Source: Octopus vulgaris
Lineage: Eukaryota
Length of the DNA: 64,000 nucleotides
NCBI GenBank assembly: GCA_951406725.2
Contig: OX597821.1
Location: 103,850,001 to 103,914,000 of the forward strand
Direction of reading: 5' to 3'
Under the pieces are notes generated by a model, which made no database searches, had not been told where the DNA came from, and was given only the letters and a program-made list of their open reading frames with translations. Shown one piece after another: positions 6,224 through 63,812 of this stretch. Position 1 is the stretch's first letter; the number at the start of each line of letters is the position of its first letter. The position numbers and the translations under genes are program-made.

Positions 6224-6957
6224 AATTCCTTTCCTACTACCGTAAGAATCTCCCAGACAGTAACACAATTTTTTTTACGTAGGCAAAGAGAAAAATAATG
6301 AATCAACACGACCCCGATTAGCCACAGACGCGTTTCGAGACTAAAGTGTTTATTCTAATCAATTAGTGTAGCATTTCCAAAAGAAAATTTGAAAATGCTA
6401 GGGTTAAATATGCACATAATCGAGCGACATTGTGCAACAGATATCCAACCAAAACATGCAAAATTTACATAGCCGAATGTGAATACATATTTATCCCTTA
6501 TACCCATGTGTATGTTACGAGCAGTACCGCAAAAAACTATAAATGTTATCTTAATGTAATTATCTACTTGGTAAAATTATTAATTAATTGATTGATTAAT
6601 TAATTAATTTTACCCTTTTATTATTAATCTGAAATTATAATTTACTCTGCGATCGAATACTGATGATGAAAAGTAAGTCAATAAAAACTTTAATCTCCTA
6701 CGTAAAAAAGTGTCTGGGAGATTCTTACGGTAGTAGGAAAGGAATTTTTAACTCCTATTTCTAATTTCGGTATGTGGTGAAGCAATTAGCTGAACCCTAA
6801 TTATAATTATGTATATAATTATAAAATATTTGTATAATTTTACCTATAAAGGCTATTTTAACGTACCGATCTACTTGGGGAAAATTATTAACTAATTGAT
6901 TGATTAATTAATTAATTTACTTCATTAATTTTACCCCTTTATTATTACTTTGAAATT
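6224..6957. mobile_element. PLE-like fold-back insertion with 3' tail ending in (TA)n
   Basis: Perfect 36-bp inverted repeat 6224-6259/6711-6746; hammerhead 3' half GTCTC-GAAACGCGTC-TGTGG on the minus strand at 6321-6342; tail segment duplicated at about 6562-6640 and 6869-6958. Confidence 0.6.
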
Positions 6958-7611
6958 ATATATATATATATATATATATATATATATATATATATATATA
7001 TATTTACTATAAACATTTATGGCTGATTTAGCGAAATGTTAAGGCGTAAATCAAAGGCGTAAATCAAATAGAAACAGCAAGGCGCAATATAATCCCATAA
7101 AGGAAAACTTTTATCGTCGCAAATTATAACTGAGTGTACCGAATCACCAGTATTGCAAGAAAGAAGCGTTAGACATTCTTAATGTTGTAAGAAGCGTGCA
7201 ATACGCGCGCGCACACACACGCAGTTTAATGTACAGTATATTAAAATAATAGCTAGTAATAGTTTCTTGACAAAAAGATAGTGGTTCTGCAGATTTTTAT
7301 AACGTACCTAACCATGTGGTTCTATGGCAAGAATCTGTAAGAAACCCTACCTTTAATACACTGCACATTAAACAATCTACATTTCTCACTAGATGGAGCA
7401 TTTTTTTGCTCATCCTACCTTAGCAAATCATGGTCTCTTGTTCGTTTTTCGCTTTTTCCAAGCCGCTTCCCGCCGCCGGCTCTATCAAGGGGGTATGATA
7501 TTATCGTTAAAGTCGGAAAATTGGTGAGAACCTGTGGCCTAAAACCGGTGAGGTTTTGCCGACCTTCTGTGTCAGTTTTCCGTTTGTTTATGCCTATATA
7601 TATATATATAT

Positions 7612-7848
7612 AATACGGAGTGCATTTAAACACATTAAAAGGTGTTCATCATAGAACTCCCTTACCCTAGAAGAAACAGCTAAAGTCCTTCTAGCGTAAG
7701 GGAGTCCTATGATGGATACCTCTTAATGTGTTTAAATGTACACTGTATTTTATATGAATAATATATAGTCTATTGACTAATTTTTTCTATACGCTAGGCC
7801 ACTAGTAGTAAAAGTTTGTAAAATCTCTATTACCCTGATATTATTAAT
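7612..7848. mobile_element. Fold-back mini-element between (TA)n tracts
   Basis: Imperfect 62-bp arms 7612-7673/7688-7749 plus ~100-nt tail; tail shares GCTAG(G/A)CCACT with elements at 37741, 49127 and 60075. Confidence 0.7.
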
Positions 7849-7964
7849 TATATATATATATATATATATATATATATATATATACATATATATAATGCCT
7901 TTTCTGACTGATATATTTATATGTACATACATACATATATCGTATGTGTATCTGGTTTGCATAC

Positions 7965-8665
7965 ATATATGGTGATTGCTTCATCTTAACACAGGATAGC
8001 TATCCAATCAACGCACACACCAACTCCATCACACAGCCACAATACTTGAGATGACTTTTATGACCAGCAGCTGACTGACGGTTTAAAATATAAGTGACAG
8101 ATATTATTCAAGTTTCTTCTATATTTTTGCCCTTTGGAATCTGATTCTGAAGGAATGTCTTTGTGAACTAGCATATGTCTTTTAAGACCAGATATTGTCT
8201 TACAAGTTTTGTGACATATGACACAAGAGGCGGTTGGGGGTACAATATTATTTCCTACTTGGACATTTCAATTTTCATGTGACTTCATGATTCATGTATC
8301 CTGCTTTTAACAACAGAACACGATCGCACACAATACATATGCAATATTCACTGTTGATTTCATTTCAAATCGTACCCTTCCGACAGACCCTTTTACGCTC
8401 AGAGCGCTGAAGCATCTTTTCCTCTCATCAGTTTCCCGATCACGCCTGGTTTCTTGAGGTTATTCCTTCACACACACTTTCTTTGGATTATGTTGTGGTC
8501 GCTTACCCGAGTTAATCTCACCATAAAAAAGACGCTTTGGCAATCGCTCATCTTTCATTCTAATAACATGTCCAGCCCATCTCATTTAAACCAAGACAAC
8601 ATGCTATTCATTTGCATACAACGTACATTGCTCAAAACTACTGTATCTGGTATGGGACATTGTTA
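7965..8665 (-). mobile_element. RTE-clade LINE 3' fragment with tandem C2H2 zinc fingers
   Basis: Minus strand [35 protein letters not shown], followed by CIVCDRVLLLKAGYMNH, CVICHKTCKTISGLKRHMLVH and a third degenerate finger. Confidence 0.8.
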
Positions 8666-8819
8666 CTTGACTTACGAGATGCGTCATATATACATACATA
8701 TATATACATACATAATATATATATATATATATATATATATACACACACACACATATATATATATATATATATATATATATATATATATATATATATATAT
8801 ATATATATATATTATGTGA

Positions 8820-61329: not shown

Positions 61330-61510
61330 TTACTTCTGAACATTGTCAGTCGAGTCGTTTGTCTAGGAGCGGTACGTCTGTCAAACAATAAACGCAGGTG
61401 TCCCAAAGCGAGCTCAGCATGAAGGGAAACCATACGTCGAGCAAAAATTCGATCGATCTTCATTTTTCAGGATGAATAACGGACCGCGAAAATGTGACCC
61501 TTAGATCTTT
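61330..61510 (+). pseudogene. 28S rRNA fragment (domain V region), diverged
   Basis: ACATTGTCAG..GCGGTACGTCTGTCAAACAATAAACGCAGGTGTCCCAAAGCGAGCTCAG..GAAACC..GAGCAAAA..TTTTCAG..GAATA..GACCGCGAAA follows the conserved LSU sequence. Confidence 0.85.
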
Positions 61511-62081
61511 GTGATTGAATTGAGTGAATTTAGTACACACACACACATATGCACACTTGTATATATATAAGTGTGTGTGTTACACTTATATATATATATT
61601 TATGAACGCATGCATGTATGTATATATACATGTATATATATATATATATATATATATGTGTGTGTGTGTGTGTGTGTGTGTGTTTGTGTGTGTGTGCGTC
61701 ATTACCTTTGTTTTTGTTCTCTCACTGCTTGACAAACGCTCTTGGTTTGTTCACATTCCCTTAACTTAGCAGTTTAGCAAACAAAAACGACAGAATAAGT
61801 AGCAGGCCTAAATAAATACTCAGTATCTCGATTTACATCGCATGTATCCTTACATTTTCTATTCTAGGTGTCACCTTCACTGCCTCGTTAGCATTATACA
61901 TTTATCTCATTGAAGGGCTGAATATACTGTCCTTATTAAACATTTATAAATCTAGAGAAAGCCATTTAGCAATGCAGTGTGGAACACAGCATACGTCATA
62001 AAATAATCCTTTATGAAGCACAAGTTAGAATACGTTTATAAACTATGAAAGGAAAGTCACTAAAAATGGAATGAATTCGAA

Positions 62082-62945
62082 ATGTGGCTGGGTTGTAAAG
62101 AGGTTGCCTAATAACTACATGGTTTTAGGTTCAGTCCCACTGCGTGGCAACTTGGGCAAGTGTCTTCTGTTATAGCTTCGGACCGACCGCAGCCTTGTGA
62201 GTGGATATGGTAGACGGAAACTGAAAGAATCTTGGTGTATATATCTCTCTCTGTATATATATATATATATATATATATATATATATATATATATATATAT
62301 ATATATATATATATATATATATATATAATTATAATAAAGGGTTATTTACAACAAGTTGCTTAAAATACATACCGAAAATGTTAGAAATAGCAGCCAAATA
62401 GGTTACCATTACTATTACTACAAAAATAAGTCTCCACAAACAACAGTATCTGTAACCCGTATATGGTAAAAAGAAGAAAGACAACGAAATCACACAGTCT
62501 ACTTTCGATCAATTATGGACGATCGTTTCTGGATTAAATTAATTATATTTCACCCTTTATATGTATCGAATACTTTTACTCCCTTACAATGAATCTAAGA
62601 AACTTCGTTTCGGTGGTACTGTTTTTGTAACTCACGTGGTGAAATTTTGGAGGGAGATACGAATTCGGTTGTCTATATAAATGTGGATATGCTGGCAGAC
62701 TCATATATATATATATATATGTATATATTTGTGTGTGAGGGGTGTCTTGTGTATGTGGTTCTCCCTCATCACTGTTTGACAACCGTTGTTGGTATGTTTA
62801 TATCTCCGTAACTTAGAGGTTCGGCAAAATTGACTCATGGAATAAGAACTGGCTTAAAAAGTAAGTCCTGGGGTCGATTAGTTCGACTAAAACTCCTTCA
62901 AGATGTTGCTCCAGCATGGCCGTACTAAAATGACTGAAACAAGTG
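62082..62945 (+). mobile_element. Family B SINE whose internal (TA)n holds a PLE-like fold-back insertion
   Basis: 5' half 62082-62240, 3' half 62750-62945, insertion about 62326-62700. Confidence 0.75.
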
Positions 62946-63454
62946 AAATAATATAAGAATGTGGAGAATAAAATACAACCGGAAGTAGCATCTTTGAGTG
63001 AGCAGAGATGACCTTTAGTAAATCCAATGTACTTTATATCTAAGTACAATAACTTAAATATTTCACAGAGTAGACATTTACCAAATACATATTTGAATGT
63101 AATGATAATCTGTGGATGAAAACTGCTTAAGAACATGAAATGAAGATATTAGAAAAGAGAACAAAACTTAACCGGAATTAACCTTTTTCGATGAAAAGAA
63201 ATGACATTTACTAAATTTAATGCTTGAGTTAAACAGCAAAATGGACAGAATTAAGAAGAGTGGGAAAATGGAATTATATTTTGAAATGCAAATGATATGA
63301 TATACAAATAATTATGAATAAAGTTACGAGTTTGTACTAATGTATTGCAAGTTTGCTGACGCATTTGTTTCTAAAGGAATCTCAGTTCGCATTAGTAGAT
63401 TGCATGTGTATATATATATAATATATATATATATATATATATATATATATATGA

Positions 63455-63812
63455 ATATAATCAAAAAGGGCAATAATATAGATTACTACCAGTGGCCCAG
63501 CACAAAGGACGAATTAGTCATTAGAGAAAATATTATTCATATAGAAATATAATTAAGGGCTCCTAAATAAGGATGCCAAGTGCTAGGGACACATAAAAGG
63601 GATAAATTTATCGAGAGTGAAAATCAAAAACATTTACCAATAACGATACATCCCGGACTGATCAGTTTCTACCTCTTTCTAGCAAAACAAACCGAATATG
63701 TTTGCTAAGGCCGGTTTCATCAGCGAGACGCCTAAGTTACATCGAGATGCGCAGCGCGTTAGACCATGTGTTGATCTCAACATCCTTATTTAGGAGCCCT
63801 TAATTATATTAT
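63455..63812. mobile_element. Fold-back element with canonical hammerhead (63654-63725, minus)
   Basis: Perfect 29-30-bp inverted repeat 63547-63575/63781-63810; CG-CTGATGA-AACC..GGTA-GAA-ACTGATCAGT-C-CG; tail 63455-63545. Confidence 0.85.

Follow-up and report, generated by a model that had tools for sequence, protein, structure and literature searches.

Why should one stretch of octopus DNA carry many fold-back inserts of mostly unrelated sequence that all follow a single asymmetric plan? The stretch in question comprises 64,000 nt of the Octopus vulgaris genome (assembly GCA_951406725.2, contig OX597821.1, positions 103,850,001 to 103,914,000 of the forward strand; hereafter the window), in which a first-pass annotation had named ten inserts built from an inverted arm and a sense arm between (TA)n runs, with an extra tail on one arm only. 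We find that these inserts are almost certainly footprints of the type left by Penelope-like elements (PLEs), and their architecture of inverted copy, one-sided tail and (TA)n targeting is an already published hallmark of this group. What such an insert consists of is, in our assessment, probably a pair of 5′-truncated 3′ ends, either of a PLE or of a non-coding hammerhead repeat, placed head to head in an AT-rich target and derived from one RNA that was copied twice off the two cut strands.

The window has a GC content of 34% and 151 TA runs, and the 79 segments between these runs were scored for inverted alignments. Eight of the named hairpins (7613, 25415, 29176, 29640, 37056, 37357, 37741 and 63453) reach scores of 60 to 776, compared with best-of-five scores of 20 to 29 after shuffling, and each of these short hairpins has one arm lying 0 to 3 nt from a TA run and 47 to 162 extra nucleotides on the opposite side. 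The insert at 25620 contains an inverted repeat of 1,060 nt (98.8% identity) with a 30-nt tail on the short arm, and its arms surround a truncated reverse transcriptase (RT) and GIY-YIG domain. The common plan described in the first-pass annotation thus holds for nine of the ten inserts, the exception being the atypical one at 6224, which lacks a left (TA)n run and combines a tailed arm with a partial tandem copy and an inverted arm missing 212 nt. The tail is one-sided as described, but its length runs from about 30 to 160 nt (about 120 nt in the family of the 6224 insert) instead of 35 to 210 nt, and the insert at 38040, which had been called partial, turned out to be complete. Inserts are clustered at 25.4-30.2 kb and 37-38.8 kb of the window and belong to 12 families, designated by letters in the following list.

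6224-6956: family J (non-coding unit of 568 nt); inverted arm at 6224-6538 (-), partial tandem tail at 6537-6635 (+) and tailed arm at 6697-6956 (+)
7613-7848: family B (471-nt non-coding unit), truncated below the hammerhead; tail-less arm to 7688 (-), tailed arm 7686-7848 (+)
25415-25580: family C stump, 3′ end of a PLE with RT and GIY-YIG; tail-less arm (-), tailed arm 25473-25580 (+)
25620-28076 (-): family L long tail-less arm with 5′-truncated RT, GIY-YIG and a 3′ region with hammerhead motif at 25707-25676
26901-28328 (-): open frame of the family L RT in the 25620 copy; the family sequence ends at about 28076
26426-26968 (-): family L GIY-YIG in the 25620 copy, in a frame different from that of the RT in this copy
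28077-29155 (+): short inverted arm of family L; a U3-A8 hammerhead motif lies at 29030-29061 and the 30-nt tail at 29126-29155, and the start of this arm is present as a short duplication at the head-to-head junction
29176-29580: family D stump, 3′ end of a PLE with RT and GIY-YIG; the tail-less arm runs to 29386 (-) and is the longer of the two, the tailed one spans 29392-29580 (+)
29640-30220: family E stump (Hydra-like PLE); tailed arm at 30005-29640 (-), arm without tail starting at 30004 (+), hammerhead motif within the arm region
31116-31730: family K (decayed Hydra-like); tail-less arm to 31252 (-), then an internal piece of the coding region (+)
37056-37259: family F (465-nt non-coding unit); tail-less arm (-), tailed arm 37117-37259 (+)
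37357-37686: family G (unit of about 215 nt) with near-fixed 5′ end and G3-C8 hammerhead motif; tailed arm (-), tail-less arm from 37534 (+)
37741-37947: family H (543-nt non-coding unit); tail-less arm (-), tailed arm 37801-37947 (+)
38040-38816: family K; the arm at 38744-38040 (-) is tail-less, has another repeat inserted at 38163-38400 and abuts the last 71 nt of the tail (+)
62328-62708: family M (non-coding unit of 560 nt); arm without tail to 62536 (-), followed by the tail end and the start of the next unit (+)
63453-63813: family I (non-coding unit of 438 nt); the tailed arm at 63782-63453 (-) carries the hammerhead motif, and a short arm without tail starts at 63781 (+)

To place these inserts in their families, the octopus's own genome (2.8 Gb) was searched once per family, which gave 312 to 2,802 first-look candidates each, of which 40 were scored and 20 to 30 fetched, including the window's own copy; all counts below therefore refer to best-scoring hits, not to a random sample. 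Five of the 12 families extend into Penelope-like coding sequence, which bears out the suggestion that the palindromes are 5′-truncated or non-autonomous products of PLE families. The link to RT and GIY-YIG that had been predicted was found for L, C, D and E, the families at 25620, 25412, 29172 and 29640, and K is a decayed relative of E as judged from tblastn matches to E proteins. Wherever the endonuclease is present, the RT is followed by a C-terminal GIY-YIG in sense orientation with the tail, and 5′ truncation, partial tandems and inverted copies with a one-sided tail were seen in all five families. Pfam RVT_1 and GIY-YIG matches were obtained for L (with a 760-aa open frame in copy L279), C and D, though only the RT of L and C and the window's endonuclease reach the Pfam cut-offs. 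At the protein level, C and D share 25-30% identity with L, and we tentatively take L and C to be Neptune-like and D to be Nematis-like. Translations of these three families contain a CX2-5CxxC linker ahead of GIY-YIG together with a CCHH motif, the features by which the accessible text of PMC8557442 defines Neptune and Nematis.

Family E has RT motifs and, in its longer copies, an open frame into a GIY-YIG-like end, for which no Pfam match to the C-terminal part was found; an earlier impression that the family lacks an RT was discarded once these longer copies had been examined. It shows a DKT motif, no CCHH, and CxxC and CxH near the C-terminus, features of the Hydra clade that concern E and K, while the CxCX5C linker of that clade is replaced by a Ser/Asn-rich stretch. 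Judging from these translations, E and K are best filed as Hydra-like, not as members of the Hydra clade. The Ser/Asn-rich stretch is long, lies between RT thumb and endonuclease (L276:4390-5328 and L331) and resembles the Asn-rich inserts of rotifer Penelope elements.

The end of the tail (site A) is fixed in every family, and the tail starts at a site B that lies 30-160 nt upstream of A, mostly in a TA-rich patch. Site A is followed by at least four TA units in 222 of 275 copies, so that the proposed use of TA microsatellites is borne out in general and overstated only in its universality, the preference being looser in the families of the 37357 insert (G, 9/25) and of the 6224 insert (J, 14/25). 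Copies of family G at non-TA sites carry flanking duplications of 12 to 14 nt in 3 of 13 cases (maximum among other pairs, 11 nt), which fits ordinary staggered cuts, although the RT might conceivably write the TA runs itself instead of meeting them at the target. A terminal stem of the tail was detected in F, K, J, H and M (z of -1.7 to -3.8), but such a stem-loop is not universal, as z stayed weaker than -1.5 for the tails of L, C, D, E, B, I and G. As a separate observation, the unrelated tails of L, H, B, I, J, M and F end alike, often with a stem-loop closing in ACC, then CT, a short AT-rich spacer and the TA run, and this common ending is a candidate RT positioning signal.

The inner junctions were studied in 246 copies of nine families, each mapped to one real reference copy (4 of 250 were dropped as duplicates; G, K and M were left out). 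An abutting inverted arm is present in 123 of these tail-anchored copies, and it ends at the family-specific site B in 85, runs off the locus in 10, is tailed as well in 3 and ends elsewhere in 25. All 123 junctions are distinct, which means that hairpins arise in the act of insertion and not by copying of existing hairpins. On these grounds, the notion of a large class of ribozyme-bearing hairpin retroelements finds no support as far as self-propagation is concerned, while the accompanying prediction of an outer end and tail that are fixed per family next to a variable inner junction came out as expected. Among the 85 complete two-armed copies (median 444 nt, range 169-1,626 nt), 23 junctions carry inserted bases and 62 do not; an overlap of at least 1 nt was seen in 57 of the latter as compared to 45% expected for blunt joins, though these overlaps are approximate because they derive from BLAST ends against one real reference copy. 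Divergence between the two arms ranges from 0 to 9% and tracks the divergence of each family.

How the arms are combined was determined with queries that are blind to the tail, i.e., arm-only 80-mers of families E and D. Of 60 loci, 59 could be classified, with 24 arms ending at A and 35 at B. A partner was in view for 37 of them, corresponding to 31 distinct insertions, and in each of these 31 pairs one arm is tailed and the other tail-less, without a single B+B pair, where an independent choice of start sites would predict about half A+B; the tail is shortened by 15-21 nt in two of these pairs, and two may be local duplicates of each other. Similarly, all seven family M hairpins that reach site B on both arms are tailed on one side only. 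Either arm can be the longer one, which argues against a simple fold-back: across the 85 complete copies, the tailed arm reaches further 5′ in 39 and the tail-less arm in 27 (in 16 of them by more than 30 nt), with both arms within 10 nt of each other in the remaining 19. Truncation points agree within 3 nt in 12 pooled cases versus 4.5 in permutations (p 0.0006), an excess also found in family D alone, and the tailed arm of family D stops 22-28 nt past B in 4 of 20 pairs. The two arms of an insertion also tend to share variants: they agree at 45 of 45 family-polymorphic positions in E (random expectation 25) and at 63 of 72 non-CpG polymorphic positions in D (39 expected).

We propose that an RT-endonuclease would nick both strands of a (TA)n run and that the resulting 3′ ends would prime on the same RNA, one of them at site A and the second at site B. 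The A-primed enzyme would then read through the B-primed hybrid so that the region upstream of B is copied twice, both cDNAs would stop independently, or jointly where the RNA ends, and repair would join them by microhomology. TA runs beside old insertions would then likely become targets for new ones, which could have produced the two clusters in the window. A single RNA primed at A and B would explain one A end and one B end per event, shared alleles, common stops where the RNA ends and stalls of the tailed arm just past B. The accessible text of PMC11167929 describes a PLE protein that in vitro nicks and extends both strands and starts at two internal sites bounding the tail, and models it as a dimer. 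More tentatively, and with less confidence than we place in the composition of the inserts, we suggest that an RT-endonuclease dimer which copies one RNA twice from two fixed starts with strand displacement might be the normal route in three PLE lineages, hijacked by seven non-coding hammerhead families through a shared terminal stem-loop, with head-to-head hairpins as a major outcome of retrotransposition in the octopus genome.

Besides the approximate overlaps and the choice of best-scoring loci, several observations weigh against copying from a single RNA. Both arms are tailed in the 3 copies mentioned above, the 25 inverted arms that end elsewhere stop at neither A nor B, and three wider pairs of family D comprise two A+B and one A+A (tail on tail). 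In an enlarged set of family E, the excess of equal truncation is not significant (5 versus 2.6, p 0.105). Sharing of alleles shows little or no excess in families B (24/35 versus 22.5) and C (7/9 versus 4.8), and the arms of one D insertion out of 18 (L072) differ at 6 of 8 polymorphic sites; where alleles are shared, gene conversion between the arms or two RNAs transcribed from the same source locus could also be the reason. The in vitro work reports, in its accessible text, no difference in start site between the strands and no homology of the start sites to the target (PMC11167929). Finally, no enzyme partner was identified for the non-coding families.

The most serious competitor, which we nonetheless regard as rather unlikely, is twin priming on two RNAs, usually from one source locus, that are held by an asymmetric dimer whose halves start at A and B. 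It accounts for either arm being longer, for the rare arms of different subfamilies (L072 and possibly L207) and, provided that the dimer is asymmetric, for the pairing rule, all without any need for strand displacement. The strict A/B asymmetry would require an extra reason, however, and neither the excess of equal truncation nor the tailed arms that stop just past B are explained. Fold-back, in which one cDNA that began at the tail turns back on itself and is copied by self-priming as far as site B, has been suggested on an antisense template for rotifer PLEs (accessible text of PMC3846280). It would readily give the alleles common to both arms and the 19 of 85 pairs with arms within 10 nt of each other, some of which have perfect palindromic centers. 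A copy of the tailed cDNA cannot exceed the tailed arm, though, yet the tail-less arm is longer in 27 of 85 insertions despite queries that favor long tailed arms, and in the 25620 copy of the window the RT lies in the tail-less arm. Fold-back is excluded as a general route provided that each long tail-less arm is a single event, and we consider it improbable in that role; it may still be behind a symmetric minority of hairpins.

Miniature inverted-repeat transposable elements (MITEs) or foldback DNA transposons with terminal inverted repeats would match the palindromic look, the TA flanks and the shortness of the two-armed copies, but lengths vary from 169 to 1,626 nt, the ends are asymmetric, every junction is unique and five families run into RT/GIY-YIG sequence. 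The first-pass annotation had named constant length, symmetric terminal repeats and no link to a PLE open reading frame as what would speak against its proposal; we found the opposite on each count, and the variable length and coding links refute the MITE reading, to which we assign hardly any probability. Equally far-fetched are fold-back artefacts of assembly or sequencing, since arm divergence of 0-9% tracks that of the family and the outer ends lie at family-specific sites that an artefact would not know, even though direct read support for these loci was not obtained (public contigs and reads compared to 36300-38900 were swamped by other family copies, and none spans a hairpin or an empty site).

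The preferred reading, i.e., one RNA copied twice, would extend to families without any coding sequence. On their 5′ side, families F, B, I, H, J and M continue into the tail of a preceding unit, the periods being 465, 471, 438, 543, 568 and 560 nt, respectively, and head-to-tail tandem repeats were seen in 1-5 loci of each; no sense match to three types of PLE proteins was found upstream in 150 loci of these six families. Two insertions of family J (L218 and L221) start at site B and run in the order tail-body-tail, which amounts to one unit plus a tail and is compatible with a tandem or circular template. Family G is a unit of about 215 nt without an RT/GIY-YIG open reading frame and with a near-fixed 5′ end, and the idea of a 450-nt tandem unit was ruled out because another repeat separates the two copies. 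This family (37357-37686; L151-L175) is very abundant and has a well-formed hammerhead-like fold with a natural G3-C8 core (a starting G in 20 of 21 matched copies).

A type I hammerhead-like motif lies in sense orientation near the 3′ end of all 12 reference copies, and its score was reached by 0-2 of 100 shuffles with a core list and scanner that had been widened and tuned after viewing the sequences. The cores are C3-G8, U3-A8 (L and C) and G3-C8 (G), and the motif is degenerate in families D and C. A focused Rfam scan gave a single weak match, to HH9, whose 19.4 bits fall short of the cut-off of 52, and in the Rfam scan of the whole window no hammerhead appeared among the matches listed (150 of 301), which otherwise comprised U6 and sub-threshold noise resembling microRNAs. 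Four of the ten named inserts (7613, 25415, 37056 and 37741) end short of their own family's core, as judged from arm extents relative to core positions in the family. The motif is called hammerhead-like here, and its role as a ribozyme is putative in all 12 families. That small non-coding repeats are moved by PLE enzymes appears likely, and the occurrence of the PLE footprint on non-coding hammerhead units directly supports, at the level of structure, the use of these enzymes by retrozyme-like repeats.

The window holds additional members of the same families at 10828, 11599, 48854, 49127 and 59639, and all family pieces together add up to about 9.8 kb or 15% of its length. Those with mapped extents are as follows.

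10828-11090 (+): family K, single tailed arm
48854-49099 (+): family M, piece crossing from one unit into the next
49378-49127 (-): family H, tailed arm
59639-60359 (-): family H, partial tandem in which 60304-60359 is a short inverted piece

Other repeats are also present. An extremely abundant, SINE-like (short interspersed element) repeat of about 235 nt occurs at 38163-38400 inside the family K arm, at 46750-46982, at 12855-13003 and elsewhere, and another family with internal TA/CA microsatellites forms many copies and some inverted pairs (19560-22000, 33950-35900, 48600-48800, 58800-59000 and 61560-62950). The short element at 47123-47356 has symmetric 40-nt terminal inverted repeats (97.6%) and TA flanks; we presume that it is a true mariner-type MITE, in contrast to the asymmetric hairpins. 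A match to U6 small nuclear RNA at 34261-34364 (+) exceeds the Rfam cut-off with 80.4 bits but has a degraded 5′ stem and is probably a retrocopy.

In twin priming of L1 elements, both target strands prime on one RNA and the resulting inversion is joined by microhomology; no sequence is duplicated in the inverted products, and the second priming site is an opportunistic one. Unlike there, both sites are fixed in the octopus inserts and the region upstream is present twice. Endonuclease-bearing PLEs are described as having a head-to-head truncated inverted copy, a tail of 30-40 nt at one end, partial tandems, a hammerhead near the 3′ end and (TA)n targeting (accessible text of PMC8557442 and PMC3846280), inverted copy, tail and (TA)n targeting are also mentioned in available parts of a curation guide (PMC8969392), and the (TA)n preference is documented for the Neptune, Naiad and Hydra clades in PMC8557442 as far as its text is accessible. 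Compared to these elements, the tails reach up to about 160 nt, most copies are stumps without an open reading frame, and near-strict pairing of tailed with tail-less arms as well as arms of the same source have been counted here. Neither this pairing rule nor twin priming for PLEs was found in the literature searched, though subscription papers, Repbase reports or preprint supplements may hold either. By eye, family E resembles the printed alignment of Hydra-clade PLEs with (TA)n preference, including octopus Hydra-1_Obim, in the accessible portion of the PMC8557442 supplement, but forms a distinct family with its Ser/Asn-rich stretch in place of CxCX5C.

An octopus annotation lists 190 Penelope-like families at 6.83% and MITEs at 186 kb, and wholesale mislabelling as MITEs is not evident in its accessible parts, unknown and unclassified SINE classes aside (PMC13282606). 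Annotators should still check short (TA)n palindromes for a one-sided tail before calling them DNA transposons. Retrozymes have been proposed to be PLE derivatives (available text of PMC7229834 and bioRxiv 10.64898/2026.07.22.740005), and their use of PLE enzymes has so far been argued from co-occurrence and phylogeny. Metazoan non-LTR (long terminal repeat) retrozymes share with our families the non-coding units capable of forming tandems, a type I hammerhead motif and a proposed origin from PLE ends, as described in the accessible text of PMC7229834. The octopus units differ in being 438-568 nt long (150-450 nt described) and mostly dispersed as 5′-truncated or inverted copies with fixed ends of the PLE type.

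How PLEs come by their inverted ends and one-sided tail is listed as an unsolved question in PMC8557442, and the accessible text of PMC11167929 does not settle it. The Poseidon protein PAc of the latter study resembles the system proposed here in its two internal RT starts bounding the tail, the extension of both strands and a stem-loop near the start; inverted products are outside that study's scope as far as its available text goes, and in the octopus the two events of one insertion use different sites. The pairing rule, the symmetry of arm lengths and the shared alleles thereby yield a specific prediction for an existing in vitro system, and the significance of these inserts lies in a testable mechanism and its non-coding passengers, not in a new class of elements.

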